Positions 4,342 through 19,266 of a stretch of DNA of 64,000 nucleotides are shown piece by piece. A model generated the notes under the pieces. The model was given only the letters and a program-made list of their open reading frames with translations, did no database searches and had not been told where the DNA came from. Numbering within the stretch: the first letter of the stretch is position 1; every line of letters starts with the position of its first letter. The stretch covers positions 992,001-1,056,000 of the forward strand of contig OY970280.1 in NCBI GenBank assembly GCA_963715865.1. The letters are read 5' to 3'. The stretch comes from Candidatus Bathyarchaeota archaeon (GTDB taxonomy: Archaea > Thermoproteota > Bathyarchaeia > Bathyarchaeales > Bathycorpusculaceae). Made by a program: the position numbers and the translations under genes.

Positions 4342-4662
4342 CCTTCAACTCTCTTCTTTCGTACATAGCGTATATAGCGTTCCTTTTGTCTACAATTCTT
4401 AAAAGCTTTGCTCCAAATCCCCCAACCAACCGGTTAAAAGAACAGCTGACTAGCAAGCGATGACCCGGATTTCAATTTTGAGGGTGCCAACTATACGCCA
4501 TTATCTAAAGGCAACGTCAACTCTCCATCTATTGCCTTGCAAATCTGTATATGTTGAGTTAGGGTTCTGCGGTTTGCTTAAAAATAAATTAGGAATTCTG
4601 AATCAGAGTCGGAATTAGAACAAACAAAACCCGAGTTTTTTAATTAAAAAGCTGTCAAAAAA

Positions 4663-4750
4663 TGGCGCCGGGAATGGGATTCGAACCCATGCGGACCAGA
4701 AGGTCCACGGGCTCTCAAGGCCCGCGCGTTAACCACTCTGCCATCCCGGC
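4663..4750 (-). tRNA. tRNA-Ser(TGA), CCA encoded
   Basis: Reverse complement GCCGGGATGGCAGAGTGG...GGGCCTTGAGAGCCC...long variable arm...GGGTTCGAATCCC...CCCGGCGCCA. Confidence 0.95.
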
Positions 4751-4828
4751 TCTTTTTAGTGTAATGAGGATGGTTGTTTATTTCTGTTTTTCCTTAGTGA
4801 AAACTCAGTAAAGGTAATAAAGCCGTAA

Positions 4829-5236
4829 ATGCATGGGCGTTTCATGGCAAAAACTCAAGAAGTGTCTATGAGTCAGGAGTTACTGGATTCAATTTTTGAG
4901 GGTGCAAAACGACTTTACCCGAGGGAGACGATTTTGCTTCTTAGGGGTAAAAAGGCTAAAGATGCCCTTCGTATAGTTGACCTTGTGATTCCGCCGTTGG
5001 CGACTTATGGGCATGGGTTTGCTAATTACCCGCTTCATTTGTTGCCCATGGATTTCTCTCTGGTAGGCACCGTGCATTCGCATCCGTCAGGTAACAAAAC
5101 GCCTTCGGATGTGGATTTTAATCATTTCTTTGGACGAATCCTCATGATTGTAGGCTACCCTTATGCGAGCCAGCAGGATGTTGCTGTATATAATTCGCAT
5201 GGGGAAAAATTACCATTGCTGGTAACTAAGGAGTAA
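4829..5236 (+). CDS. JAMM/MPN (Mov34) metalloprotease; its last 12 nt are the attachment core of the element
   Basis: E...VHSHPSG...PSDVD JAMM motif; true start may be the second Met. Confidence 0.9.
   Translation: MHGRFMAKTQEVSMSQELLDSIFEGAKRLYPRETILLLRGKKAKDALRIVDLVIPPLATYGHGFANYPLHLLPMDFSLVGTVHSHPSGNKTPSDVDFNHFFGRILMIVGYPYASQQDVAVYNSHGEKLPLLVTKE
5225..5236 (+). repeat. attL core, 12-bp direct repeat
   Basis: ACTAAGGAGTAA = Thr-Lys-Glu-stop of the JAMM gene. Confidence 0.85.
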
Positions 5237-5305: not shown

Positions 5306-6367
5306 ATGTTAAATCAGCAAGTCGAAAACTGGTTAAGCGAATGCAGAACCGCAAACACAGAACGACAATATCGAATAAGAATAACAAATTTTTTAAATTG
5401 GTATAATGGCACGGTTGAACAGTTCTTAGCCTTAACCCCGGCAGAGAAACGTAACGCTATTTTGAGGTTTCAAAACGCGCCTATACACAAATCCAAAAAC
5501 ACCGCTGGCTCTCATGTTGTCGCTATTCTATCCTTCTTGCGATCCGTTGATATGCCACTGGATTTAAGGGGAAAAAAACTTCGCTATCAAATGGATATTT
5601 CAAGCCACACCTTCACAAACGGCGACTTGCAAAAAATGTTTGAGGTAGCCGACATAAAAGGCAAGGCACTTTTAGCTTTAGCGACTTCGCTGGGCTGGGA
5701 GGTCAGCGCGGTTCTCGGCCTCAAACGTGCCTATGTGGAATCTTTAATAGCGAAGGCAAAAAGCGAAAACCAACAGTTCTATTATTTCCTTTCACAGCGG
5801 GAAAAGACTGGAGCGCCACGGTTAGGCGTCTTAAACCCGTTAGCGATTGAATGGCTCTCTAAATGGTTTATCGAAAGTGACCAATACCCAAAACGCAACC
5901 GCATAAAGAACCCTAAAAGAGACTATGGAAACAGCGACATATTCGACGTTAATGAAGCATCCGCAAACAAGATAGTACAGCGATTAGCAAGGAGAGCGCA
6001 TATAGTCACCACGGGCAGAGTGCGTTTTCACAAGATAAGAGGCTGGGTTATGAGCAATCTTAGCCGCGCAGGATTCAACGAGTTTCAGGTTAAGTTTTGT
6101 GTTGGTAAGGCTATTCAAGCAAGCGACATGACTTATCTAAATACTTTACAAGAGCAAATAGCAGAGCGTTACCCAGCAGCCTATAACGACTATTTAAGTT
6201 TACAAAGCACCGTTCCAGCAAAAGCCTTAGTTAAAATGAGCAAAGAAACCGAGGCTATCAAAGCAGATAACGCTGAGTTAAAGGCCAAGATTGCGAAGAT
6301 TGAAAATGACATGAAAGAGTTGCTTCTTAAAGTGGTCGCACAGGAACCAAAGCTTCCTGACGAATAA
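5306..6367 (+). CDS. Tyrosine recombinase/integrase
   Basis: N-terminal SAM-like region, REKTG, RFHKIR (HxxR), VGK, DMTYL (Tyr); C-terminal coiled coil. Confidence 0.9.
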   Translation: MLNQQVENWLSECRTANTERQYRIRITNFLNWYNGTVEQFLALTPAEKRNAILRFQNAPIHKSKNTAGSHVVAILSFLRSVDMPLDLRGKKLRYQMDISSHTFTNGDLQKMFEVADIKGKALLALATSLGWEVSAVLGLKRAYVESLIAKAKSENQQFYYFLSQREKTGAPRLGVLNPLAIEWLSKWFIESDQYPKRNRIKNPKRDYGNSDIFDVNEASANKIVQRLARRAHIVTTGRVRFHKIRGWVMSNLSRAGFNEFQVKFCVGKAIQASDMTYLNTLQEQIAERYPAAYNDYLSLQSTVPAKALVKMSKETEAIKADNAELKAKIAKIENDMKELLLKVVAQEPKLPDE

Positions 6368-6403: not shown

Positions 6404-7156
6404 CTAACATTTTTTCTGTTGGTCACAGTGTTTGCATACTTCAGCGATGTCGAGGTCTCCCAACTTCAAAATGTGTGGCCCTCGGTCTATTTTTGGCTGT
6501 TGTATTTGGTAACAGGATGGATATTCTTCTTCTTTCTCAATTTGATCGAGTGCTGATTTTGCTTCGTTTAGTTGTAAACCCATTTTTCCAGCCAACCAGT
6601 CGAGATAGTCCGCGATCTCATTCATCGAATATCCTTTCTCTTTTAAGTAAATTCCAGTGAGCCTTAATCCTCTATTGAAGCCGTCTTCAAATGTGCATGG
6701 GGAAAAGAGAGCTACGCATTTTTTCGGAGATTCTCTATGAACCCAGAAAAGCTCAGGTATCCACTTTGGTTGCTCTTCTATCTTTTTGCCACTAAGTTCT
6801 TCTACAGTTAATATTTTTGTTAAGGAGTCTCTTTCTTCCTGCGACATGAGTTTTTCTGCCATCCGTTGTACTTGCCTTCTGGCATCAGAACGTTGAACCA
6901 CTAAACCAAACTTCAATGTTGGATGGTTCTCCTTCAACAAATGAAAATGGAATAACTTTTCTTCATATCGAGCCTTGAGTTCGACTTCCCAAAGTATCTT
7001 TTCTTCGTTTTTCTCCCAACAAACATCTACTATAACTTTAGCCCTCTTAGGAATCTCAAAAGAAGGGTTTCCAATAACATAACCCTTTTCAATTCCTTGC
7101 TTCTTAAGCAAATCTGCTAACGTAGTATGCAAAGACACTATTTTCTTTTCTGGCAT
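6404..7156 (-). CDS. PD-(D/E)xK nuclease-like domain fused to a primase C-terminal-like helical domain
   Basis: VIVDVCW...ILWEVELK at N-terminus; RLTGIYLKEKGYS...YPSC...CKHC at C-terminus. Confidence 0.45.
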   Translation of the reverse strand: MPEKKIVSLHTTLADLLKKQGIEKGYVIGNPSFEIPKRAKVIVDVCWEKNEEKILWEVELKARYEEKLFHFHLLKENHPTLKFGLVVQRSDARRQVQRMAEKLMSQEERDSLTKILTVEELSGKKIEEQPKWIPELFWVHRESPKKCVALFSPCTFEDGFNRGLRLTGIYLKEKGYSMNEIADYLDWLAGKMGLQLNEAKSALDQIEKEEEYPSCYQIQQPKIDRGPHILKLGDLDIAEVCKHCDQQKKC

Positions 7157-7168
7157 CTATTCACCTCC

Positions 7169-7696
7169 CTAAGAGCGCGCTGGCATTTTTCGAATGTAGT
7201 ATCTTGCCAGATCCGTTGTTTTTTCAAGTGGTTCTATGCCATGGCACATCCTGTCTAACATTTTTCGAAGCCTGCTTATCCCCATTTTTGAGATTTTAAT
7301 GGGAAGGCAGTGGTAGTCATATTTTACTATTATGCCATCCACTGAGTCTATCAGTTCCCTATTCTTTTCAATGTTGTCTCGCTTTTGTTTGTAACTCGTA
7401 AACCATTCATGTATTTTTTGATTTGAGATTTTATCGATGCACACATTGCCGACCTTAGACGTCTTTCCGCTACTATCGGCAACTACATAAATATCTTTGA
7501 TTCTTTCGTGACCACATACTTGACAATTAAGAAATACTTCTGAACGATAATGGTCAACGAGTCGGTAACTTTCACCTTCATACTGGAATTCGCCAACGGC
7601 CTTTATGTATTCTGGAATACTTGCATCCAATTCGCTCAAAACTTCGTCAGTTTTTGATATAATGTTCAATCGTTTCTTCAAACCTGTTTTACTCAT
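7169..7696 (-). CDS. Zn-finger protein of virus/plasmid type
   Basis: CQVCGH...KVGNVCI motif. Confidence 0.55.
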   Translation of the reverse strand: MSKTGLKKRLNIISKTDEVLSELDASIPEYIKAVGEFQYEGESYRLVDHYRSEVFLNCQVCGHERIKDIYVVADSSGKTSKVGNVCIDKISNQKIHEWFTSYKQKRDNIEKNRELIDSVDGIIVKYDYHCLPIKISKMGISRLRKMLDRMCHGIEPLEKTTDLARYYIRKMPARS

Positions 7697-9758
7697 TTTT
7701 CGAAGATTCCTCCTCTTCCATCAACTCAGCCAACGTCTTTTTGCGATTCTCTGCGTTAACATCATCAGACGAAATTAGTGCATCTACAGCCTTTTGCTCG
7801 TTAGACGCGTTTTCGGAGTTATTTTCTGGTTCTAACGCTGATTCTTCCTTAGAAACTATTACCACCAAGGGGTCGCTTTGCACCCTATCATTTTTATTAT
7901 TTTCTATTGAAGGATTAGATAGGGTTAGATTAGATTGTATAGATATATTATTTTCGCCAACTTTATTTTTACTATCAGGTGGTAATAGTTTAGAAGAGAC
8001 TTCACTGTTAAATTCAGAGTGCGCGTCCATAATCATTTTATCAAATTCTTCTTCAGTTATCGGTGTTTCAGTTTTATCAATGAAATTAATTTTTGATAGG
8101 GCGTAAGTGACACCCCTGGTGGTAATTGTTTCTTTCCATGTTTTGAAGTCCTTTATCAATTTCGCCTTTAAATCAGGGTTAATTGGCAAATTGGCTCTAA
8201 GTGCACTAATTTCAGTTTGAATCTCCGAATTTGACGCATTTTTTAACGGGTAATATGTTAATTCTCGACTGTCAGATTGTTCGTCTTCGCGTATGTCAAC
8301 CCAGCCTAAATCGCATAGTCTTTCTAAATATCGTCTTGCTGTTTTTCTTGACGGCGCTTTGGTTGTTGGTGTCTTTTCGCCTTCATAATTCATGGTAGGA
8401 TTGTTTTTGTCGTAGATGTGATTTACAATTGTCTTTAAGGTTGCGCCGTTAACGTGGTGTTCAACGTATTCATGGTAAAACGTTAATGTGCGCTTATCCG
8501 TGTTTGTCTGTGTGGTTTCGTAAATGAACTTGAAGTGTTTTTCTGCGTTTATGAAGTCTTGAACTGTAGCTACAAAGAATTTTTCGCCTTCTATGGTGAA
8601 AATAGGACGCTGGAATAGTGACAGGATCGGTTTTGCAGATAGGAGTTGTTGAAAATGTTCGAAGTCTCGCATGTCTCTTACTTCTAATCCGCCTATTAAC
8701 TCGTCGCAGTTGGGGAAGGGATTAATGAATTTTAGGTCATACTTTTTGATTGTATCGCGTATATTTCGAATCAAGGCTTTAAACAATATTTTGTCTTGGG
8801 ATGGTTTGGATTCCCAGGGGTAAGATCGTTTAGTCGCGATTGTTTTTTTGCCAGCTCGGATTTTAGCTTCATTGGTGTCTGGAGTGTCTGAAATTACTCT
8901 GGTTGCAAATTCCGAATAGTAATATTCGTCGATGCTACAGAAAATGAAGGCTGGTGCACCTTCAAGAACTACAACATGAACGTGGCCGTGCTCATCGACA
9001 AATTTATGTGTAATTCGGGGGCCGTCATGCGACATAGTGCTTTTTAACATCGCTAAGGTTTCTTTTGGTACAGTTTCTAAGAGAATGTAGATTTTGCCAG
9101 TGAATTTTATTAGGTCGAATGCTGCTTTAACTTTTTTGTCCCATTTAGGTTTTTCAATTTTGTAAACGTCTAATGCGTCTTGGTATTCTTCTTTCCCATC
9201 ATAATTTTTGGGTTTTGGCGCGTGCGGTGCATCATCCATGTTTAATGGTTCCTCTTCGCCGTTCTCATTGATTGTCATAAGTTCGCCCTGTTCATGAGTA
9301 ATAACTTTAGGGCTTTGCGAAGCGACCGTTATTATGTCTTCTTCCGGGAAATACGCGAAGACTGCTGTGGTATCATAGGTTTTTCCGCTTCCGCTTTCGG
9401 TGCTCTTGTGGCTAACTGAGAAGGGATCAACATAGGCGCTTAGCCCAGCCGCTTTATTGTCCTCGATAACCGCGTCATCAAACTTAACTGTTCTATGAAT
9501 ATCTGCATTAAATCGTTCTTCAATTTTTGGGTCATAAGCTAATTGTTCCAGCGAGCTTTTCAGTTCCAGTGGTACATGAAAGCTTTCAAGGCATTGCGTG
9601 TTGAGTAGGTTTTGCATGATTTCTTTTCCTTTAGCGCGGCATTCAGGGCAAAGAAGCTTGCCTGTTGGTGTTTCGCGCGTGACATCTAAACTTGATATGC
9701 CGCAGGCTTCGCATGTCTGCTCGATTTTTCGGAATCGTAAAAATTTAGGGAATTTCAT
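7689..9758 (-). CDS. Putative replicative helicase (MCM-like AAA+) with N-terminal Zn finger and C-terminal wHTH
   Basis: CEAC/CPEC; Walker A-like TESGSGKT; EFATR Arg-finger-like motif; SRKTARRYLERLCDLGWV wHTH. Confidence 0.65.
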   Translation of the reverse strand: MKFPKFLRFRKIEQTCEACGISSLDVTRETPTGKLLCPECRAKGKEIMQNLLNTQCLESFHVPLELKSSLEQLAYDPKIEERFNADIHRTVKFDDAVIEDNKAAGLSAYVDPFSVSHKSTESGSGKTYDTTAVFAYFPEEDIITVASQSPKVITHEQGELMTINENGEEEPLNMDDAPHAPKPKNYDGKEEYQDALDVYKIEKPKWDKKVKAAFDLIKFTGKIYILLETVPKETLAMLKSTMSHDGPRITHKFVDEHGHVHVVVLEGAPAFIFCSIDEYYYSEFATRVISDTPDTNEAKIRAGKKTIATKRSYPWESKPSQDKILFKALIRNIRDTIKKYDLKFINPFPNCDELIGGLEVRDMRDFEHFQQLLSAKPILSLFQRPIFTIEGEKFFVATVQDFINAEKHFKFIYETTQTNTDKRTLTFYHEYVEHHVNGATLKTIVNHIYDKNNPTMNYEGEKTPTTKAPSRKTARRYLERLCDLGWVDIREDEQSDSRELTYYPLKNASNSEIQTEISALRANLPINPDLKAKLIKDFKTWKETITTRGVTYALSKINFIDKTETPITEEEFDKMIMDAHSEFNSEVSSKLLPPDSKNKVGENNISIQSNLTLSNPSIENNKNDRVQSDPLVVIVSKEESALEPENNSENASNEQKAVDALISSDDVNAENRKKTLAELMEEEESSKNE

Positions 9759-9868
9759 TGTGGAATCACTTCAAGCGCTTTTAACCGCGCTTCAATTTTG
9801 TCGAAAACCAGGTTCATTTCACGAATAAGGTCACGGATTGTAAATTCTTCACTTTTTGGGTTCATCAT
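9755..9868 (-). CDS. Small coiled-coil protein, 37 aa (not in ORF track)
   Basis: MMNPKSEEFTIRDLIREMNLVFDKIEARLKALEVIPQ; stop overlaps helicase start (ATGA). Confidence 0.5.
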   Translation of the reverse strand: MMNPKSEEFTIRDLIREMNLVFDKIEARLKALEVIPQ

Positions 9869-10202
9869 GCAAATCAACTTTTTTCATTTTTTCCCTCCAA
9901 GCTCCATCTTCCAGCTTCGTTTTTTGGTTTGCATGTTCGTCGTAACCGAAAGAGCGTTTGCATCGACCATATTTATAGTTTTCCAACTTTTTCTAATTTC
10001 TAATTTTATTTCTACCGTTTATTTTCCCCAATTTTAAAAAAACTAAAAGGGCAACCTTAGAGCCTTAGTCGGCAGTCTTACGAAATCCAAAATCCAGCGC
10101 TTTTTGGGCAAAGTCAATGAAATTCCAAAGATCGCAAGACCGCTATCGACGGGGTTTGAGTTGCATAGGCTTTTCTGGCGCTCCTGAGGTGAGTCAAGGT
10201 TA

Positions 10203-10365
10203 TCCAGACGCTGAAACGCGGAAATTAGACGAATAGATGAAACCGCGCTCAGTGCTCGCGCGAACTCTGAGACGCTGGAACAGCGCATTCGGAGCCTAAG
10301 CGCGCTTAGAGCGCTACGTGTGGTAAATAAGCCTGAGTGTTCCGAAGAGGCCTACTTACCACACG
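10203..10365 (-). ncRNA. Putative structured RNA or cruciform region
   Basis: Three-way junction, 14-bp palindrome and 18-bp stem with two G-U pairs on the minus strand. Confidence 0.4.
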
Positions 10366-10439
10366 CTGACTGGACGGTTGGAGAATTCATGGCAAGCCAA
10401 CCGGCGCACAAGTGGAGGAGAATCAAGGCTTGTGCTATG

Positions 10440-10604
10440 TCAGTTTAATGTCTGTAATGGTTTGCGTGGAGGGCTTCTTTGAAAGGGCAGTGAATTGTGG
10501 TTCTTGACGGTGCATGGTAAAGCGCTGTATTGTCGCACGTTTCGGAAAAACTGATACCAGTTTGTTGTGGTCTTTCTGGCTCTTCCGCGTTGTCGGTCTG
10601 TCAT
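10440..10604 (-). CDS. Small basic protein, 54 aa (not in ORF track)
   Basis: ATG 1 nt after the stop of 10606-11304; MTDRQRGRARKTT... Confidence 0.35.
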   Translation of the reverse strand: MTDRQRGRARKTTTNWYQFFRNVRQYSALPCTVKNHNSLPFQRSPPRKPLQTLN

Positions 10605-10605
10605 G

Positions 10606-11304
10606 CTATCGCCTGCTCTTTGCGTGATAAATGGGGCCTAGCGTAGTGGTTCCGTCTGGTTGTGGTGTTGGAAGTCCGCCGCCTATTTCAAAGTCGTCAG
10701 AGTTCACGATTTTCAGGTTGCCACGCGAGTCTGTTGTCAGCAGTGCTTTGTCGAGCGGTACATCGGGACTCAATGCGCCGACGAGGTGCGTTCCTTTGGT
10801 TAAGTTAGGAACGACTCCGCTTAGGTGTGGCGCGATTTTCTCCAGTTCTGCCTCAATCGCGTTGAACGCGGCAAGCCTTTTATCGAACTTTGCCATTTTC
10901 ATCTCTAAACATTCTCTGAGTGCGCGCTGTTCACCTAATAATTGCGCAAGCCCCAAAGCTTCAACCGCGACAACGTTGGTTCTACCTCTTAGATGGAGGT
11001 CGAGTTTTTCCATCAGATCGCATTCTATACTTAACGCGGCAGTGACTAACTTTGAGGTTTCAATGTTCGCTTTTAGCTCTTCCGTAAATTGTGTCATAGT
11101 AGCTTTCCACCATTTCCCGACGGTAATTTCGCTATCTAAATTGGCGAATTGCTTTGCTGCACTGGGAGTATTGGATGTTATGACTTGATGAGTCGGGAAG
11201 TCTCGCTGAAGCATTTCATAGGCCTTTTCCAATATAGCGTAAGCGTTCCGCACGTCTGCGTCTGCGTCAAACATTTTCAAGTTATTAAAAGTTTCAAGTT
11301 TCAT
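10606..11304 (-). CDS. Hypothetical alpha-helical/coiled-coil protein
   Basis: 232 aa, GAGGTG ribosome-binding site, in the leftward operon. Confidence 0.7.
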   Translation of the reverse strand: MKLETFNNLKMFDADADVRNAYAILEKAYEMLQRDFPTHQVITSNTPSAAKQFANLDSEITVGKWWKATMTQFTEELKANIETSKLVTAALSIECDLMEKLDLHLRGRTNVVAVEALGLAQLLGEQRALRECLEMKMAKFDKRLAAFNAIEAELEKIAPHLSGVVPNLTKGTHLVGALSPDVPLDKALLTTDSRGNLKIVNSDDFEIGGGLPTPQPDGTTTLGPIYHAKSRR

Positions 11305-11319
11305 GTTTTTTCACCTCTA

Positions 11320-11706
11320 TTAAAGCCATATCGTATTTTTTTCTTGTACCGTTAAAACTTTTAGTCGCCAATCTGAGCATGGAGCGCCGTTATGAATAAA
11401 AGCTGGCGAACCAAGTTTGCAGCGCTCGCGCTTTGTATCATTCATGAGACAGGTAAATTCTACTTGATCGTAAGGCGCGTACATTTTAATGCGCCAGTCG
11501 TCTGGGTTAGCCATTACCGCGCTTTGCGACAATTCGACACGGTGAATGTGATCGCATGAACGGCAGCATCCGGGCATTTGGCACTTTTCGCATGGCGGTG
11601 AACAGGCGGGTTTAGGCAATTCTGCAACTTCGGATTCTGAAGGTTTCTTAGGTTGATTAGTTTGTTCTTGCATAATTTTTTTCTTCCTACGAAATGGATT
11701 TTTCAT
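11320..11706 (-). CDS. Cys-rich hypothetical protein
   Basis: CSPPCEKCQMPGCCRSCDH plus three further Cys. Confidence 0.6.
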   Translation of the reverse strand: MKNPFRRKKKIMQEQTNQPKKPSESEVAELPKPACSPPCEKCQMPGCCRSCDHIHRVELSQSAVMANPDDWRIKMYAPYDQVEFTCLMNDTKRERCKLGSPAFIHNGAPCSDWRLKVLTVQEKNTIWL

Positions 11707-11847
11707 TTACTTTCAACTCTCGGGTTTCGTTCATTCCAAGCTGTTCTGGCTGACCGAAACATTCCATTATGACTTTTTCAAACGCGCGGATGCGCTTGGT
11801 GTGGCTGGAGATATTGCATCTTGTTTTCTCTTTTTTAGAAACTTTGC

Positions 11848-12159
11848 TCATTTTTCGTTCTCCTCTGCTTCTGGATACTTTGGATATTTGTTTATTGTTT
11901 GGGCAATCCGCAAAACCACGACCACGACTCCGTGTTTAATAGCGCAATCAAAAAGTGACATTGCCAAAACGGAGTCAGAAAGACCTATGACGCTTTCAGT
12001 TAATGCGAAGTGTTTAATTGGAAAACCGAGCAGTTTTTTGGCGTCGCGGTAGAATGCCTGCCTTCCTTTCCCATTAGCCGCAAAATCGTAATCCACAATG
12101 TAATACTCTGTGTGTGCGCCTAATTCCTGAATTTTTCGCATAAAAATGACCTTACTCAT
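11848..12159 (-). CDS. Cas2/VapD-like ferredoxin-fold protein
   Basis: YYIVDYDF...RQAFYRDAKKLLG resembles the Cas2 YxVxYDI...R pattern. Confidence 0.45.
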   Translation of the reverse strand: MSKVIFMRKIQELGAHTEYYIVDYDFAANGKGRQAFYRDAKKLLGFPIKHFALTESVIGLSDSVLAMSLFDCAIKHGVVVVVLRIAQTINKYPKYPEAEENEK

Positions 12160-12184: not shown

Positions 12185-12406
12185 TTATGTGATTAAAGGA
12201 TTTTTTACGCTTGGAACAAGTTGTTTAAGATCGGAGAAAGCTATTTTGTAGAGAATCTGATGATGGCATTCGGGGCATTCAAAAGTCATTATAATTAAGG
12301 GGTCTTTGCCGACGTTTATGACTTCAGCTTTAACGGTTTTCAGCAGAACCTCAGATTTTTTATGTACACAGAAGAAATGTTGCTGATTCATCAATGCCTG
12401 CGCCAT
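12185..12406 (-). CDS. Small Zn-ribbon protein
   Basis: CVH ... CPEC metal-binding pairs. Confidence 0.5.
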   Translation of the reverse strand: MAQALMNQQHFFCVHKKSEVLLKTVKAEVINVGKDPLIIMTFECPECHHQILYKIAFSDLKQLVPSVKNPLIT

Positions 12407-12437: not shown

Positions 12438-14165
12438 TTATTTGCCTCCGCGATAAAGTTTCTGTTGCGCAAACGCTTGCGATAAAGCCGTGACTAAAGG
12501 AGTTTCAAGACCGTTTATGATTGCTTGTGTTAAAGCATTTGTGAAATCCTGCAAACTTGCGTTAACTCCTAAACTTGCAATGCTAATTGTGGGGTTAACA
12601 GTGATTTGGAAAGTGTTTTCGTTTGTTACGGAGCCACCGCCACTTTCAGCCGTTGTTGCTAATGGAGTTACTGTGCCGACGTTGCTTAATGCTTCGCCAA
12701 GATTTTCGTTTAACGGCATAACAGCTTCTGGGCCAGATTCGCCAACCATTGCCAATGTTGGTTGAGTCACTACAGCGCCCCCTGCTAAGCCAATAGCGCT
12801 AAAAGCACCACCGATAGCTGATCCAACACCACCAAGCGCACTTCCAATGGTTCCGAAAAAGCCAGCGATTGGCTTCAACACTGTATTATAAACTGTTTCC
12901 AACGCGTCAAAAACAGGTTTAATCAATATATTGTATGCCGAACTGAGACCACTTGAAAGAGTGTTCCACGCAGCAAGCAATGTATCAACAATGAATGTTC
13001 CAAGCGGCGCTAAAACGTCGTTCCAAACCAATGTAAGCGCATCTTTAACGTCGTTTACGGCTGTTTGAATAAGGCCCCAAGCAACTTCGAAGGGTTTAAG
13101 GTACAGGTTAACCCAAACTTCTCCGATAAATTTGCCCAATGGAACAAGCACGTTATTCCATAAGAATGTTAATGCGCCTTCAATATCATCCAACGCAGTT
13201 TTTAATGCTCCTCCTAACACCGAACCAATCTCATTTATTGCATCGCGGAAAGGCGCGCAGTTCTGGTATGCTTCATAGATTCCAACTGCTAAGAGAGCGA
13301 TGCCAGTGATTACAAGAATGATGGGGTTTGCGGCGAGAAAATCCATTGCTCCCGAAATACCCTCAATCCCGCCAGACACGGCTGAACTGATGCCTGGAAA
13401 AGCTGTCATAAGTGTGGACATACCTGCAAATACGCTGGTAACAGCGGGGATGACGCTTACGCCAGTCATCATGAAGTCGTTGTTTAAGTTGCGTTGACCT
13501 TCAGTGACTCGTTCATTCGCAACCGTTAACGCGTCCTGCGCTGCACTAAGCTTACTCGCCGCTAAGGTTGCCTGCGGACTATCTGCTCCATACTTCGCGA
13601 CGGCTGTATTGTACGCATTTTGCGCCGACGTAACCGCATTAGTATCTCTCTCAACTGTAACATGAGCCTTGTCCAGGCTAACTTGCGCGTTTTCGATGTT
13701 GCTTACGCCCATGACAAGCATCGCGCCTGAAGATGCTAATTGCCCAACCGCTCCTACCTGTCGCAAAGTGCTGGCAGACGCCGCGTCAGTGGCTGAAACT
13801 GTTTGTCCCTGAGCGTTTACAGTCGTGGTTGCACTGGTTAAATTCGCGTTTGCAACATTTTCCGTCGCGGTTTGTGCTCCACTTAAGCTGCTGTTCACGT
13901 TCACCATTGAACTTTCGACATTTTGACTCACTGTGGCTGCAGTACTGCTAATCTGGTTTAGACTTTGATCAATATTTTCACTTGCTGTAGAAAATGCATT
14001 TTCGACGGAGGAAGCGGCATTTTCCATGCCACTTTCAAAAGTGGTCATTGGGGTACTGACATCTTCGATGCTGCCGCTTAATCCGCTTAATGCACTTTCC
14101 ATTCCACTAATCGCGCTGCTAACCTGATCTGATAATGTGAATTGGAATTGAACTGGAAAACTCAA
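12438..14165 (-). CDS. Tail tape-measure protein
   Basis: Ser/Ala-rich N-terminus, coiled coil, NPIILVITGIALL...PFRD motif, periodic W/F repeats, C-terminal LAGGAVVTQPTLAMVGESGPEAVMPL motif. Confidence 0.85.
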   Translation of the reverse strand: MSFPVQFQFTLSDQVSSAISGMESALSGLSGSIEDVSTPMTTFESGMENAASSVENAFSTASENIDQSLNQISSTAATVSQNVESSMVNVNSSLSGAQTATENVANANLTSATTTVNAQGQTVSATDAASASTLRQVGAVGQLASSGAMLVMGVSNIENAQVSLDKAHVTVERDTNAVTSAQNAYNTAVAKYGADSPQATLAASKLSAAQDALTVANERVTEGQRNLNNDFMMTGVSVIPAVTSVFAGMSTLMTAFPGISSAVSGGIEGISGAMDFLAANPIILVITGIALLAVGIYEAYQNCAPFRDAINEIGSVLGGALKTALDDIEGALTFLWNNVLVPLGKFIGEVWVNLYLKPFEVAWGLIQTAVNDVKDALTLVWNDVLAPLGTFIVDTLLAAWNTLSSGLSSAYNILIKPVFDALETVYNTVLKPIAGFFGTIGSALGGVGSAIGGAFSAIGLAGGAVVTQPTLAMVGESGPEAVMPLNENLGEALSNVGTVTPLATTAESGGGSVTNENTFQITVNPTISIASLGVNASLQDFTNALTQAIINGLETPLVTALSQAFAQQKLYRGGK

Positions 14166-14167
14166 TT

Positions 14168-14341
14168 TTAAGCCTCCGATGCTTTTTCAATAATTAGCCG
14201 TTCATTGTCGATGCGGACTAAAATTTTAGTGGGTAGTTTAGGAAACGGAAAACTTGAATCTGACATGACACAAGATGGAATGTACACGATCCCAGTTTTC
14301 GCGCATGGATGCGCTATTAATCTTCCGACGCTTTCACGCAT
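14168..14341 (-). CDS. AbrB/SpoVT-like small protein, 57 aa (not in ORF track)
   Basis: KTGIVYIPS...DSSFPF...VRIDNERLIIEK swapped-hairpin pattern; ends 2 nt before the tape-measure start. Confidence 0.6.
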   Translation of the reverse strand: MRESVGRLIAHPCAKTGIVYIPSCVMSDSSFPFPKLPTKILVRIDNERLIIEKASEA

Positions 14342-14803
14342 TTTTCGGTCTCTCTTTTTTCTTGCCTATGTTCCAGAGACCGTTCCACGCTATGCGCGAA
14401 AGCGACCTATTTCCAAGTTTTCCTTAGAGAGCATTGGAGCTTTAAGTCACTGAGTGCTTGTCGGGTCTTACACGCGAGCTGGGGTGATACTCCTTCCGTC
14501 TCGCCGAAGCTCAGGATACAGTTCCTTCCACTACGCAGAGCCCTGTGACTCCAGTATGGACTATGGACGGTGCCGCACGTCCTCGGCTTACGGTTGCTCC
14601 GTTGCTCCCATTACTAAGGCGAAAGTGAAGTAAAGCAAATTTGGCTTCATGCTTAGCTTCGCATTATTAGGCTTGATTTCAATGTTTGTTTGGCTATTCC
14701 GCCTTAGCAGATTTAGTATTGTTGCGCCTGCTTAAAAACTTTACGCATTTTTAGCATAAATAATATTAAAAGTAACTTTTTTATCAATAAATTGAATAGA
14801 ATA

Positions 14804-14875
14804 AAATACTAACATATAAGTTAGTATTTGTTTGAAATATTAACATATAAGTTAGTATTTGTGATATGTTAAGAT
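14804..14875. repeat. Tandem palindromic 26-bp repeats with 31-bp period plus an inverted half site
   Basis: AAATA(C/T)TAAC-ATATAA-GTTAGTATTT at 14804 and 14835; ATATGTTAAGATTT at 14864. Confidence 0.85.
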
Positions 14876-15114
14876 TTGTCAGTTAACTAACCACGTTTTT
14901 AAAAGGCCGCGCTAATCGCAAGAATCACAAGATAAATTCTCGCCACAGATTGACTTATCCCATCTATTTCTTAATAGGATCGCTGAGAATCGCTTTAAAC
15001 ACTGGATTGACTGAGAAAAAGTGAGTTGTTACCCTACCCTAAACAATGCAGAAAAGCGACTCAGCAACATAGGCGTTTGCTAAAATACAAAAAAAAGAAG
15101 GGTTATTAGACTTT

Positions 15115-15243
15115 TCATTTGTCTTGTTGACGAAGCTCTTGTAGAAGAAGAGAAGAAACGTAATCCGTGATTGATAATCCATTACGTTTTGCTCTATCTT
15201 CTATCGCGGCAAACGCTTCTTTACTAACTCTTAATTTCTTCAT
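15115..15243 (-). CDS. RHH/CopG-like DNA-binding protein, 42 aa (not in ORF track)
   Basis: MKKLRVSKEAFAAIEDRAKRNGLSITDYVSSLL; GAGGTG ribosome-binding site. Confidence 0.65.
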   Translation of the reverse strand: MKKLRVSKEAFAAIEDRAKRNGLSITDYVSSLLLQELRQQDK

Positions 15244-15381
15244 TCAATCACCTCTTTTTTTCCACGCTATTATCTGCGGGCAGTCACTTTCACACCCTGA
15301 GTAATAACATTCTGGTGTTTCGCTATCTTGATCAATTTCATGAGCAGTTTTATTTTTAGGTTTCTTGGTTGTTTTTTGCAT
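15244..15381 (-). CDS. Small protein, 45 aa, three Cys (not in ORF track)
   Basis: Start overlaps upstream stop and its stop abuts the downstream start. Confidence 0.45.
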   Translation of the reverse strand: MQKTTKKPKNKTAHEIDQDSETPECYYSGCESDCPQIIAWKKRGD

Positions 15382-15566
15382 TAAGGCACTGCTCCGTTTT
15401 TGATTGGATGGGTTTTCATGTACTCGGTTAAGGCCTGCACTGTTTCCTCTGAAACTTTGTAGGTTGAGCCCGTTTTTCTATGAACGTAAAGTGTCCATTC
15501 GAGCCAGAACTTGTCGTCTATGTTTAAGCTTGTTCTTTTCTTTGTCATAGATTGCATATTTACCAC
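15381..15566 (-). CDS. RHH DNA-binding protein
   Basis: KRTSLNIDDKFW...VSEETVQALTEYM. Confidence 0.7.
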   Translation of the reverse strand: MVNMQSMTKKRTSLNIDDKFWLEWTLYVHRKTGSTYKVSEETVQALTEYMKTHPIKNGAVP

Positions 15567-15647
15567 GTTACTTTACTTAATGCTTTCGTCCCTATTAAAC
15601 ATTACCACATTAACACATTAACACAATGTTTATTAATTACCACGTTA
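15560..15647. promoter_or_regulatory. Divergent promoter with three TTACCAC(G/A)TTA direct repeats
   Basis: Copies at 15560, 15602 and 15637 between divergent genes. Confidence 0.6.
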
Positions 15648-15859
15648 TTACGTTATTATTTGAGGAAAGCGAAATGTGGAATCAAACAAACTTGGATGGA
15701 AAAATTTTAGAACTCCCTACGGAGCTCCAATCAGTTTGCTGCGAAATTTGTTATAACGCAACCGAGGAAAAATGCGATTGTAAGTGCCACGGCGCCTTTC
15801 ACGGTCTCGGCAACTTGAACAAGAAAACAGAAACTGAGAAAATGCGCGAGGGATTTTAA
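15626..15859 (+). CDS. Small Cys/His metal-binding protein
   Basis: CCEIC...CDCKCHGAFHG; real start probably MWNQ. Confidence 0.55.
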   Translation: MFINYHVITLLFEESEMWNQTNLDGKILELPTELQSVCCEICYNATEEKCDCKCHGAFHGLGNLNKKTETEKMREGF

Positions 15860-15860
15860 G

Positions 15861-16196
15861 ATGGAAGTCGTAATGAACCGCACTAAGGAACATTGGCTTT
15901 TCACTTGGACGCCTACTGGCACCGTTAAAACTTACTTTGTCAGCGAAGGACACATTAACGTGCAATGCCTACCCGGCGAGAAAGAGTTAACCAACCAACT
16001 GTTCAACGCATTGTACGCTGGAGTGCCCGTTCACGTTCACGGCGCCTATGACAAGGAAACTCACATCCTCACGATTAAGCCTGCCGAACGCGATGAAAAT
16101 GCGCCAGTCCCCACGCAAACGCCGCAACAGCGCGACCGCGCCACAGACGACTATTTCAAGTGGCAAGAAGAACACCTCAAAAACCTATGCGTGTAA
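15861..16196 (+). CDS. Hypothetical protein
   Basis: 111 aa, directly follows the previous gene. Confidence 0.55.
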   Translation: MEVVMNRTKEHWLFTWTPTGTVKTYFVSEGHINVQCLPGEKELTNQLFNALYAGVPVHVHGAYDKETHILTIKPAERDENAPVPTQTPQQRDRATDDYFKWQEEHLKNLCV

Positions 16197-16232
16197 TCCG
16201 CAATATTCAAGAAGTTAGGAGTCGTATAGGAG

Positions 16233-16484
16233 GTGAAAAGTGTGAGTGAAAAATTTGAGTATGAACAAGTAACTATCAAAGTGCCTAAGCAAATAATGGC
16301 TTTTCTGCGCTTCCAAGCTGGACAGCACGATGTCCAGGTAACGGAAGAAATAGAAGGCTGTGTGCTTGACGATGTGCGAGGTCTAATGGAAGGTATGGAG
16401 GGAGAAGAATTGATTGGTTTTCTCGGGATGGACACTATTTTCTATGAGCTATTAGACGACCAAAACTATAAGCCAAAAGGCTAA
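16233..16484 (+). CDS. RHH-like protein
   Basis: YEQVTIKVPKQIMAFLR; GGAGGTGA ribosome-binding site. Confidence 0.6.
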   Translation: MKSVSEKFEYEQVTIKVPKQIMAFLRFQAGQHDVQVTEEIEGCVLDDVRGLMEGMEGEELIGFLGMDTIFYELLDDQNYKPKG

Positions 16485-16602: not shown

Positions 16603-16614
16603 ACTAAGGAGTAA
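16603..16614 (+). repeat. attR core, 12-bp direct repeat
   Basis: ACTAAGGAGTAA identical to 5225-5236. Confidence 0.85.
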
Positions 16615-16624
16615 CCGCTCTTCA

Positions 16625-16969
16625 CTAAGCGCATAGGGCTTTGTAGGCTTCGATAAATTCCATGGCAAATTTGTCAGCGTATTTCTCTGTGCCTCTATGC
16701 ATTTTATCCACCGCTTTGCTGCGCAGGTGATGATAAAACTCGTGTAGAATAACGAAGGGGTTCACCATCACGTCACTATTTAGCACTGAAATGGTTTCAT
16801 TTTTAGATGTATAACAACCGAACGCTTTCATCTTGTGCCCTTTTGGTAAACCAACTTTCAGTTTGGGAACATTCACTTTGTAATTTTTCGCCAGTAAAGT
16901 GAGCGCTTCTTCCGGTTTTCCATTGAGAATAAACCAGACCACTAGTGGTTTGAAGTTGTCCTGCGTCAT
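16625..16969 (-). CDS. Zincin-like HExxH protein, conserved archaeal hypothetical
   Basis: FVILHEFYHH motif. Confidence 0.75.
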   Translation of the reverse strand: MTQDNFKPLVVWFILNGKPEEALTLLAKNYKVNVPKLKVGLPKGHKMKAFGCYTSKNETISVLNSDVMVNPFVILHEFYHHLRSKAVDKMHRGTEKYADKFAMEFIEAYKALCA

Positions 16970-17039
16970 TGTGCCGTCAGCAATACAGAGTTGCGCTGCT
17001 TAATTAACTGCCCCGTAAAAAGATTGGATAAGCATAAGG

Positions 17040-18290
17040 TTACTCGCCGTAAGTGCCTCTTCTAATCTTCTCAGCCAACAAATGGATGAACTCAATCGGC
17101 CAAACATCATCACAAACATCGTCCGTCAATATGTTGCGTTGATGATACATGGAAATTAAATCATTTTTTAGTAGAAGTATTAGAAGGAATTTGTGGCCAT
17201 AAGTTCTTTTGAACAGCGCATATTTGCGAGCTTGCCTTTTAGTCATTTCAAAGTGGGGTTCAAGGATTATTTTTCTTCCTTGAAGTGTCTTTTCTAATAT
17301 AAAATCTGGGGTGTAAATTTCGTTGTTTGGCAAAGGGAAGCTAATCGTTTCATAACCATATGGAATGTGCATCCTCAAAAGGGTGAGGGCGGTTTTTTTC
17401 TCCCATCCGCTCTTGTAGCGGCTCATTTTTTGGTAATAAGCTTGGGACTGCCCAGTTATTTTTTGCATGCGATCAAGAAAATCAAGTGCTGTTTTCAACG
17501 TGTAGCGGTTTAAGGTTTTTTGTTTAAGCCATCTGCCCAAGAGGAAAAAGGGAGAATCTACCTTCGCAGGGTCTTGTGGGAAAAGTCGTTTTGCAAAGTC
17601 AGTTATTTTTTGCCGTGCATCTGCTGCGGTGCGTTCGTCTCTCCACAGCGATGGCGAAGCTGAGTTTATTACACCCAAGCTTGCAGCAACATTAGCGTTT
17701 TCCTTGGTCAATGGAACGTAGAGGTCTTCTGGCAAAAGATGGTCGTAGATTTGCAGGTCAGGTAGAGGTCTCACCATCCACCGCATATAAATCCACGCCT
17801 TGTCTATGTGCGGTCCGCTAAGCGCTTTGATGTTTTGTGCAATGTCCTCGATGAAATCCTTAGGCTTACTAAATCTTTGGGCGTACTTTAGCAGGTTTTT
17901 TTCTTCATTAGTCTTCACAAATAAGTTAACAGACGCCAAGATTTCGGATGCCGCTTTTTTGTTTGGACCTAAATCGTAATAAAAATCGGATTTTACGATT
18001 TCTTCTTCGAAAATATGCGCTTTTTTTATTTCGAAAAGGCTGTTGCCAAAGGCTTCATGTAGATATGCTAGTAGCATTCGTGCGTTTTCAGGGTAACCTA
18101 CAACTGTATCATCAAGTATAGATGCAGCCAGTAGAAAGTAGTGCGCTATAGTTTTCCGCTCTTCATACTTTTCCGAGTACGGGTTAAAGAGCAACCGTGG
18201 ACTCATACGTCGGTCCCATTGGATGTCAACAACGTTGGAATTCTTGTTAATGAAGTCAACAAGTAAAGTTAGCACTTCATCGGTTGCCAT
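17040..18290 (-). CDS. DUF2400-like (HhH-GPD superfamily) domain fused to a T7 endonuclease I-like PD-(D/E)xK domain
   Basis: YMRWMVR...LYVPL...FPQDPAKVD; then YKSGWE...YGYE...YTPDF...ILEPH. Confidence 0.65.
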   Translation of the reverse strand: MATDEVLTLLVDFINKNSNVVDIQWDRRMSPRLLFNPYSEKYEERKTIAHYFLLAASILDDTVVGYPENARMLLAYLHEAFGNSLFEIKKAHIFEEEIVKSDFYYDLGPNKKAASEILASVNLFVKTNEEKNLLKYAQRFSKPKDFIEDIAQNIKALSGPHIDKAWIYMRWMVRPLPDLQIYDHLLPEDLYVPLTKENANVAASLGVINSASPSLWRDERTAADARQKITDFAKRLFPQDPAKVDSPFFLLGRWLKQKTLNRYTLKTALDFLDRMQKITGQSQAYYQKMSRYKSGWEKKTALTLLRMHIPYGYETISFPLPNNEIYTPDFILEKTLQGRKIILEPHFEMTKRQARKYALFKRTYGHKFLLILLLKNDLISMYHQRNILTDDVCDDVWPIEFIHLLAEKIRRGTYGE

Positions 18291-18491
18291 AGCCCATACC
18301 CCGTTTATTGACTATATATGCATTAGTGGCTTAAAACTGCTATTATAGTAAGCGACCATTTAACTAAAGAAATATTTTTGATCTTTAAGACTGGGAAATA
18401 GATTAATAGAAGCGGGAATTTTGAATATGCATTACAGCGGAAAGACGAAGCGCCTATATAGGAAAAAGCTGTAAAAAAAATAAGCACACGT

Positions 18492-18569
18492 GGGCCGGTC
18501 GTCTAGCCTGGTTAGGACATCTGCTTGACGTGCAGAAGGTCGCCGGTCCGAATCCGGTCCGGCCCACCA
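18492..18569 (+). tRNA. tRNA-Val(GAC), CCA encoded
   Basis: GGGCCGG acceptor stem, anticodon arm TCTGC-TTGACGT-GCAGA, ends CCGGCCCACCA. Confidence 0.95.
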
Positions 18570-19227
18570 ACATTTCATCTTTTAGACAATTCTCAGGTCA
18601 AACGGTCATTTTCGTTCTTGACGCTTGCACAAAAAAAGCCAATAAGGCAAAATGAAGGCGTTTCAGGGTTTTCTTATCTTCACCAATGAGGTTTTAGGTA
18701 ATGAGAGCGCCGTATTTTGTTGTTAAAGTTTGTATCTTTCAAGATCGGATTGAGAACCGCATTTTGGGGTAACAAAATAGAAGATTTCTCCACAGTTGCT
18801 ACAGCGAAACTCTTGATTTTTGTTTTTCTCTACCGCTGGAGAACTACATTTAGGACAGCGTATTTCAACGTTCGGCGTTTTTTCTTCCTTCCAAGTTTAG
18901 CGTAAATTGTTTTGTTATTAAAGATTACGACAAATATGGGTTAGGTTAAAGGGCAAGGTTTTTGAGTGGCGTTGTTTTCTATTGCCTGCCAAGGTTGATG
19001 AATTTTGTCTAGAAAAGCAAAGAAAGCCGAGGGTCTAGAAAAGCACAAGAAATTGCAACGGGAAAAGGACCAGAAACGAAAAGAGAAAAAACAGGTTTCA
19101 CTCCCAGCAAAACACGCCAAAGGCAAAAAATAGTTCTTTTGCGTTAAACGAAGTTTGTCTACTCCGATGTAATCTACTTTTTCCGTTTGTTACCTATTTC
19201 TAAATTCTGAGTTTCAGTGGCCAAAGC

Positions 19228-19266
19228 GCAGAACGTCGCCGGTCCAGATCCGGCCCGGCTCACCAA
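19228..19266 (+). repeat. Degenerate copy of the tRNA-Val 3' half (att scar)
   Basis: 34 of 39 nt identical to 18532-18570. Confidence 0.8.

Follow-up and report, generated by a model that had tools for sequence, protein, structure and literature searches.

What does a lone gene for a tail tape-measure protein (TMP) do in a small mobile element of an archaeon? The question is raised by an integrative element of 11,378 bp in the genome of a Candidatus Bathyarchaeota archaeon (assembly GCA_963715865.1), where it lies within a stretch of 64,000 nucleotides (contig OY970280.1, positions 992,001 to 1,056,000) that we call the window and to which coordinates refer unless another locus is named. An earlier note, written from the letters of the window alone, had proposed a satellite that borrows heads and tails from a helper virus and sets its own tail length or DNA-ejection channel. 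The analysis presented here bears out part of this proposal: the element is discrete and mobile, its TMP is real and intact, and its relatives are small elements. No evidence was obtained of helper dependence, virion packaging or an effect on tail length. We estimate at about 50% the probability that the element is a satellite of siphovirus-like Bathyarchaeia viruses and supplies its own TMP, as the PLEs of Vibrio cholerae do.

The borders of the element can be placed exactly. The note had described it as fully bounded, with intact attachment (att) sites. The cores of these sites are the two copies of a 12-bp direct repeat, ACTAAGGAGTAA. The left copy (attL core, 5225–5236) forms the last codons and stop of a host JAB/MPN gene (4829–5236), and the right copy (attR core, 16603–16614) lies 10 bp from a convergent host HExxH gene (16625–16969). 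This 12-mer is the only repeat compatible with an 11.4-kb element, and taken alone it is at chance level, about one 12-mer match being expected between the regions compared. We accept it because the empty site was found. In the nearest genome, which belongs to the same genus (G018, contig C21; genomes and fetched loci carry G and L labels, G000 being the genome that holds the window), the JAB/MPN gene directly neighbors the HExxH/DUF2400 genes, and the core occurs once, at 977–988 of locus L010. Positions 4659–5236 of the window align to 412–988 of this locus and positions 16603–18430 to 977–2801. Since the alignment breaks precisely at the single 12-mer copy, the insertion is exact: 11,378 bp were inserted into the final codons of a gene that encodes a protein. 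The spacing from the JAB/MPN gene to DUF2400 is about 430 bp in twelve same-genus genomes, as opposed to 11.8 kb in the genome of the window. Two neighboring tRNA genes, tRNA-Ser (4663–4750) and tRNA-Val (18492–18569), were considered as integration targets and rejected because the junctions fall in the 3' end of the JAB gene. Together, these observations support a discrete, recently acquired, site-specific integrative element.

A second element occupies the same site in another genome. In G070 (locus L038, G070:C7:46500-66500), the same attB, with the identical 12-bp core on both sides (at 2963 and 13589), holds a different element of 10,626 bp, whose integrase is 84% identical to that of the window (IntA) and whose RepA homolog is 34% identical to the window's replication protein. 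Its genes include one for a large terminase (phrog_2, E 4e-34), with a 160-aa gene upstream of it, and one for a 330-aa protein; no capsid, portal or TMP was seen in it. The 330-aa protein is probably protease/scaffold-like, because its homologs in provirus regions of G000 lie between portal and capsid genes. IntA itself (353 aa; 5306–6367, plus strand) is a divergent tyrosine-recombinase-like integrase with a weak Pfam match to Phage_integrase (PF00589; E 0.07 for IntA and 0.004 for the L038 homolog, both below the cut-off). A search of the PDB by sequence found no relative of it. Residues H242-x-x-R245, W247 and Y277 are invariant in three homologs, and the genetic evidence for site-specific integration, namely the empty site and the second element at the same site, is strong.

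The gene in question lies at 12438–14165 on the minus strand and is an uninterrupted open reading frame (ORF) of 575 aa with a TTG start. The note had called it tightly coupled to its neighbors, and indeed the upstream ORF ends 2 bp before its start and the downstream ORF begins 31 bp past its stop. It matches the PHROG tape-measure families phrog_1535, 991, 58, 1272 and 4200 (E 2e-14 to 1.6e-6), as well as phrog_971 (E 1.8e-16); against Pfam, no family scored above the cut-off. The N-terminal half is helical, its first 230 residues being rich in Ser, Ala, Thr and Gln. Hydrophobic segments at 231–249 and 272–301 make up a central hairpin, which is followed at 330–430 by repeats of the type W-N-x-V-L-x-P-L, then by a Gly-rich stretch and a conserved C-terminus. 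There, the motif G-G-x-V-x-x-P-T...G-E-x-G-P-E-A-V-x-P-L is common to the window TMP and the virus TMPs. A search of 5.8 billion proteins yielded about 90 homologs of 330–950 aa at E < 1e-30, a few of which, longer and more distant (P0057, P0078), carry PF10145; a single-protein search of viral contigs gave one weak match only. Every position that is invariant in the family is retained in the window copy.

Its identity is settled by the gene contexts of the closest homologs. The nearest relatives, 43–53% identical, hold the TMP slot in complete head-tailed proviruses or viral contigs of Bathyarchaeia, that is, after two chaperone-like genes (resembling tail assembly chaperones) and before distal-tail/Laminin_G_3 genes. 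In locus L003, the order runs from a terminase through an HK97-type capsid gene (PF25209), small ORFs, two chaperone-like genes of about 130 aa, the TMP homolog and a 143-aa gene to a 600-aa Laminin_G_3 protein. Locus L004 presents the same series from the capsid gene onward, and L001 shares the small tail ORFs, the TMP homolog, a 130-aa gene and the large downstream protein. This order is kept in most same-genus proviruses and in 80 of 80 IMG/VR loci, and the lineage with these TMPs comes from Bathyarchaeia of peat and soil. Judged by homology and gene order, the ORF at 12438–14165 is a genuine tail tape-measure protein, as the note had read it. Its claim that no other ORF of the element resembles a virion protein holds equally at the level of sequence: searches with Pfam, PHROGs, PADLOC and tblastn against the provirus proteins of the lineage found no capsid, portal, terminase, tube, chaperone or baseplate gene besides the TMP.

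We found TMP homologs in 40 of 120 same-genus genomes and fetched 16 of their contexts. Twelve of these are head-tailed proviruses; in the other four, the 10 kb around the TMP hold no further provirus marker. Small elements with a TMP number at least seven, and five of these are bounded (8–11.4 kb). In the window, the TMP gene is followed by a gene for a 73-aa zinc-ribbon-like protein, Zn73 (12185–12406, minus strand; C13, H15 and C44-P-x-C47). Zn73 homologs of 73–93 aa lie directly after the TMP in L014, L017 and L028, which are three of the four marker-free contexts, and in L067, L068 and L069, which are metagenomic contigs found via Zn73. L014 is bounded by a 24-bp repeat (11,352 bp), L017 by a 21-bp repeat (10,255 bp, with an empty site in G112) and L028 by a tRNA-His repeat (9,920 bp). 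A further element, L015 in G108, is bounded by a 23-bp repeat (7,991 bp), lacks Zn73 and has a Neck1/tail-completion gene beside its TMP. Compared with the window's, the backbone of the sister elements is different, consisting of a D5-like primase-helicase and an integrase of 445–476 aa with PF00589, so that TMP-bearing small elements are built on two unrelated sets of integrase and replication genes. Because at least six small elements, with backbones of two unrelated kinds, share the intact cassette of TMP and zinc-ribbon gene, the view that the TMP in small elements is not debris is supported, and the case that the note had made against random decay is strengthened accordingly.

The zinc-ribbon protein appears to be peculiar to this setting. 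A profile search of 1.8 billion representative proteins gave a family of only 13 small members, a single-sequence homolog search returned only Zn73 itself, and no homolog was found in the approximately 95 virus and provirus loci examined. The possibility that Zn73 is a truncated form of the viral 130-aa protein encoded after the TMP was rejected (hhalign probability 0.1%). Prediction of a complex between TMP and Zn73 scored 0.00, with controls not run, and is evidence neither way. Two further observations concern these TMP contexts. In L028 (G088:C2:4500-24500), frame breaks divide the integrase, the D5-like helicase and the TMP, the last of these in its C-terminus; they could reflect early decay or assembly errors. 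A third kind of TMP context (L054, L057, L081, L143, L147 and others) comprises chaperone-like genes, a TMP, r135, a distant terminase-like gene (about 29% identity) and rep482, without the 130-aa and Laminin_G_3 genes; it seems to represent another group of viruses or a compact variant.

The note had held that its reading would fail if close relatives were larger complete proviruses from which the head-tail block was deleted. We checked this with the replication protein RepA (689 aa; 7689–9758, minus strand), whose relatives prove to be small elements. RepA is a putative plasmid-type, helicase-like replication protein on the basis of its ESM Atlas features: it scores 0.97 to clusters in which about 10% of the members carry PF27228 (MTBMA_p00010_2nd), and its lower-ranked matches (0.84–0.87) are clusters with PF00910 RNA_helicase, DUF3987 or DUF3631. 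It thus seems to resemble the MTBMA_p00010-type replication proteins of archaeal plasmids. A single-protein search of genome contigs gave no relatives. RepA homologs are present in 10 of 119 same-genus genomes, and the loci fetched are small elements in which they lie next to integrases. Among the eight loci fetched, five have none of the virion markers tested. That of G070 encodes the terminase and the protease/scaffold-like protein, and in L035 a diverged TMP is accompanied by a gene resembling a tail assembly chaperone. Complete proviruses are absent from this set. Conversely, the replication module rep482/r135 of the class-1 proviruses was not found in any small element. L035 (G036:C130:24000-41561) is unusual in its arrangement: a diverged TMP-like gene of 752 aa, preceded by a chaperone-like gene, lies between two IntB integrases, along with homologs of the window's 77-aa and 83-aa ORFs; next comes a RepA 71% identical to the window's. 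It may be a tandem or composite element.

We next consider how the TMPs of small elements relate to those of viruses. In a tree of 33 TMPs, the small-element copies do not form one clade, and the starred branches force at least two origins; the L017 TMP, for example, is nested in a provirus clade with support of 100/99. Two types of TMP C-terminus (I and II) can be distinguished, and both are present in viruses and in small elements. A clade or a C-terminus specific to small elements was therefore rejected, and systematically longer TMPs in small elements found no support (452–582 aa versus a viral range of 332–967 aa). Polyphyly of the small-element TMPs would be expected of elements that have to match their helpers. 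TMPs have been exchanged repeatedly with viruses, and the evidence fits a plasmid-derived integrative element that captured a virus TMP and keeps exchanging it. A small TMP element and a class-1 provirus co-reside in G091 and in G088. The TMPs of the two are 61% identical in G091; in G088 the TMP of the co-resident provirus is the closest known relative of the element's, with 57.5% identity overall and 90% over the last 100 residues. The ratio of nonsynonymous to synonymous substitution (dN/dS, Nei-Gojobori) comes to 0.19 in G091 and, over the C-terminal region of the pair in G088, to 0.07, compared with 0.10 for a virus-virus pair, all rough values with dS near saturation. The TMP is thus under purifying selection in the two element-provirus pairs that are measurable.

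The closest functional precedent is found in bacteria. The PLEs of Vibrio cholerae (PLE11, PLE1 and PLE4), satellites of phage ICP1, carry their own TMP, which has been demonstrated experimentally to replace the helper TMP in chimeric tails, and predicted tmp genes in other putative satellites were noted in the same work (PMC12987554). Like the element described here, PLEs are small and integrative, have no capsid genes and bring their own TMP. Unlike it, they are bacterial, measure about 18 kb, encode a tail assembly chaperone and a baseplate hub, and have a TMP about 20% identical to that of the helper. The elements studied here live in an archaeal host, have TMPs 43–61% identical to virus TMPs, lack a chaperone, possess a novel zinc-ribbon partner and are known from sequence alone. 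We suggest that the element would excise and replicate when a siphovirus-like virus replicates in the cell, and that its DNA would be packaged into capsids made by this helper. As in the Vibrio PLEs, its TMP would be built into helper-made tails in place of the helper TMP, and the resulting chimeric tails would favor transmission of the element or impair the helper. Zn73 may serve as a dedicated partner of the TMP in this process.

Extending this suggestion to the family is slightly more tentative. The 8–11.4-kb integrative elements of peat and soil Bathyarchaeia, with plasmid-like backbones, their own TMP and a zinc-ribbon partner, may represent the first satellites known for tailed viruses of archaea; sibling elements that share the backbone and the att site carry a terminase and a protease/scaffold-like gene, which would then be an alternative hijacking module. 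The layout of integrase, replicase and regulators is that of bacterial satellites. P4 measures about 11.6 kb and is thus similar in size, and both P4 and the PICIs combine an integrase, a primase-helicase-type replication protein, small regulators and one or a few genes that hijack morphogenesis. The sister elements with their D5-like primase-helicase compare with the P4/PICI layout in this respect. In contrast to the element, P4 and the PICIs act on capsid size or packaging (Sid/Psu, CpmAB, TerS) and not on the tail, and there is no sequence relationship.

Several observations weigh against a satellite lifestyle. In G000 (2.35 Mb, one contig), the window TMP is the only TMP, and the note's suggestion to look there for a helper provirus led to a negative answer: no provirus with a matching tail module is present, as homologs of the class-1 genes for the tube, the chaperones, the 130-aa protein and Laminin_G_3 are all absent from the genome, and two regions with a head module lack a matching tail, one of them being decayed. 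Any helper would therefore be an incoming virus; class-1 proviruses are present in G018, the closest relative of G000. No small terminase was found in the element, and no cos or pac mimic was seen by blastn; its sole DNA similarity to viruses lies within the TMP gene, and it lacks the tail assembly chaperone that PLEs encode. No sign of excision or encapsidation was obtained, and neither metagenome nor viral contigs contained the attP junction pattern. For the window TMP, dS is saturated against every relative, and the evidence of purifying selection comes from two sister elements. Finally, hidden virion proteins are possible among the ORFs that match no family, whose single-sequence AlphaFold2 models are poor and unusable for structure searching (mean predicted local distance difference test, pLDDT, 44.5 for the 232-aa ORF and 42.7 for the 250-aa ORF).

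The main rival explanation is that the element interferes with viruses without being transmitted as a satellite: the TMP variant and Zn73 would poison or mis-size the tails of an infecting class-1 virus, protecting the host population and with it the element, which would spread by other means. The two behaviors are compatible, since PLE does both. Full-length, virus-compatible TMPs of both C-terminal types under purifying selection would serve such a purpose, the element yielded neither a packaging gene nor a packaging signal, and tail assembly is a known target of interference, PLE11 Rta being directed against the helper TMP (PMC12987554) and Tai systems blocking tail assembly (PMC11364771). 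We nevertheless find interference alone rather doubtful, given that PADLOC returned no match, that a decoy needs no full-length conservation tracking the diversity of viral TMPs, and that 8–11 kb with integrase, replicase and regulators is the classic satellite layout. The TMP might also be a relic without function, which a plasmid-like integrative element acquired from a provirus through illegitimate recombination and has simply carried along since. G000 is rich in provirus debris (frameshifted terminase and capsid genes at 590–595 kb, a lone terminase at 976–977 kb and C-terminal fragments of capsid genes) and has no helper, and a thaumarchaeal element with only TerS/TerL has been read as a relic (PMC6563490). 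Neutral carriage is quite unlikely, however, to have left the TMP and Zn73 intact together in at least six elements on two unrelated backbones, Zn73 confined to the small-element context, all family-invariant residues in place and dN/dS at 0.07–0.19 in the two measurable pairs.

Two other explanations concern the protein itself and the origin of the element. A TMP-like protein could act outside the virion, for instance as a channel or membrane-remodeling factor in vesicle- or contact-mediated DNA transfer, a role that the hydrophobic hairpin at 231–301, the lack of other virion genes and the non-viral partner Zn73 would all suit. We see only a slim chance of this: the protein resembles bona fide virus TMPs over its whole length, C-terminus included, and has repeatedly been replaced by them, which argues that it still works in a viral tail context. 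We also know of no precedent for a TMP repurposed as a membrane protein. That the element derives by deletion from a complete provirus, having lost the head and most tail genes, is very improbable. The TMP is its only virion gene, and the Neck1/tail-completion gene beside the TMP in L015 and the chaperone-like gene of L035 could be taken for intermediate states of decay. Against such an origin stand the exact borders with an intact integrase, the difference of the replication and integration modules from those of the class-1 proviruses examined (which use rep482/r135), non-viral neighbors on both sides of the TMP (Zn73 and a 57-aa ORF), and the fact that no larger complete provirus was encountered among the backbone relatives fetched.

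If the elements are satellites, tail hijacking arose independently in Archaea, and an extra layer of nested parasitism exists in an abundant, uncultivated lineage of soil and peat. Elements of the G070 type and of the TMP type would then represent alternative hijacking modules on one chassis. Reprogramming of tails by satellites through a TMP was demonstrated experimentally only recently, in Vibrio (PMC12987554). The note had mentioned actinobacterial satellites with a TMP of their own; these exist as the EPIPs, satellites of a Mycolicibacterium aichiense prophage that carry a TMP and have tails longer than those of the helper, and incorporation of the satellite TMP into helper tails has been proposed for them (PMC12822802, preprint). 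Unlike the element, EPIPs also encode a small terminase, head-tail adaptor and stopper, scaffold, major capsid protein and serine integrase (PMC12822802), and the Vibrio PLEs are the stronger precedent.

Among Archaea, the only satellites described so far are, according to a 2025 paper, pSSVx/pSSVi and the haloarchaeal SRCEs (10.1101/2025.02.15.638363), which differ from the element in parasitizing spindle-shaped viruses and in carrying a major capsid protein, an AAA+ ATPase or both. NitKor-E1 of Nitrosopumilus koreensis, with a tyrosine integrase and with TerS/TerL as its only Caudoviricetes-like genes, was interpreted by its authors as a probable relic (PMC6563490). It parallels the G070 sibling element, in which TerL and the protease/scaffold-like gene sit at the same att site as the window's element; it differs from the latter in having a terminase and no TMP, and no recurrence at the level of a family has been shown for it. 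We found no description of a satellite of archaeal tailed viruses or of Bathyarchaeia in the literature searched, and surveys of thaumarchaeal elements and of Bathyarchaeia viruses report none for tailed viruses (PMC6563490, PMC10848311), in agreement with the note's claim of novelty in this lineage. Where a mobile element of an archaeon holds a single virion gene, that gene is not necessarily a relic. The compact signature of a TMP gene followed by a zinc-ribbon gene of 73–93 aa, with no chaperone gene upstream, can be used to search metagenomes and viromes.

The remaining genes of the element are mostly small and without assignable family. Downstream of IntA, on the minus strand, lie a 250-aa ORF with a Cys-rich C-terminus (6404–7156), which has a sub-threshold match to an AHJR-like nuclease (E 0.1) and no ESM Atlas match, and a 175-aa ORF (7169–7696) with a weak match to phrog_2319 (E 1.6e-4). 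Between RepA and the 232-aa ORF, a region of about 850 bp (9759–10605, minus strand) is richer in GC than its surroundings and holds no convincing ORF, Rfam match or DNA conservation in relatives. The 232-aa ORF (10606–11304, minus strand) is an ORFan, with no homologs among 5.8 billion proteins, no family match and no ESM Atlas match. It is predicted to consist mostly of long helices with a small beta C-terminus, which in this low-confidence model does not look like an HK97 fold. Next come, on the same strand, a Cys-rich 128-aa ORF (11320–11706), to which a gene in L015, the TMP element of G108, is weakly similar (25%, E 2e-7), and a 103-aa ORF (11848–12159) without Pfam or PHROG match, which is followed by a 54-aa ORF (11687–11851).

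Directly upstream of the TMP, the 57-aa ORF (14168–14341, minus strand) has no Pfam match. Its position corresponds to the slot of a MazE/AbrB-type gene in L067, where PF04014 lies directly upstream of the TMP, and its similarity to the MazE-like protein of L068 is marginal (E 0.05). Beyond it, an AT-rich intergenic region (14342–15114) contains two tandem 28-bp palindromic repeats (14804–14831 and 14835–14862) and is a candidate for an operator or an origin. On the minus strand, small ORFs of 42, 45 and 61 aa follow (15115–15566). The first looks like a ribbon-helix-helix protein from its sequence, and at the DNA level it matches part of L014 with 74% identity. The rightward genes (15626–16484, plus strand) comprise a Cys-rich 77-aa ORF, a 111-aa ORF and an 83-aa ORF, none with a family match. 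The 77-aa ORF has a homolog in L035 and the 83-aa ORF has homologs in L028 and L035, with additional DNA-level matches of the latter in L068 and in G000 at 926 kb. Across the whole element, Rfam detected no family and PADLOC no defence model.

G000 contains further virus-derived and mobile DNA. A provirus-like region at G000:C1:1,690,000-1,714,300 (L030, L031) encodes a terminase, a portal (phrog_9232), an HK97-type capsid and head-tail proteins, together with a minor tail protein of phrog_290 and a protein of 1210 aa. Unlike related viruses with the same head genes, it lacks homologs of the tube, the chaperones and the TMP. Another, at G000:C1:577,000-595,600 (L032), is a decayed provirus whose terminase and capsid genes are each split into two frames (590–595 kb) and in which a 449-aa ORF stands in the place expected of a TMP, before a phrog_290 protein. 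Both regions (1.69–1.71 Mb and 577–596 kb) were considered as resident helper and rejected, as they have no homologs of class-1 tail genes. A simple repeat scan found no CRISPR array in G000. At 15 kb to the left of the window (G000:C1:976,294-978,253; L033 8294-10253), a large terminase stands alone, sharing 71% identity with its counterpart in a class-1 provirus, with a 173-aa gene containing a helix-turn-helix upstream and a gene with a SocA/Panacea domain nearby; no capsid or portal was detected around it, and it may be another element with a single virion gene. Between 922,000 and 943,000 of the same contig (C1) lie two homologs of the 83-aa ORF, a D5-like helicase, an IntB integrase of 73% identity and several integrase fragments, and the interval of 922–1,009 kb as a whole is a hotspot of mobile DNA. 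In the right flank of the element, the adjoining host gene (17040–18290) combines DUF2400 (E 1e-8) with a weak C-terminal match to Phage_endo_I (E 0.008) and is 83–93% identical across the genus. Further right, 696 bp downstream of the intact tRNA-Val gene, a partial copy of its 3' half (39 nt, 87%; 18532–18570 versus 19228–19266) looks like the leftover att repeat of a lost or tiny element.

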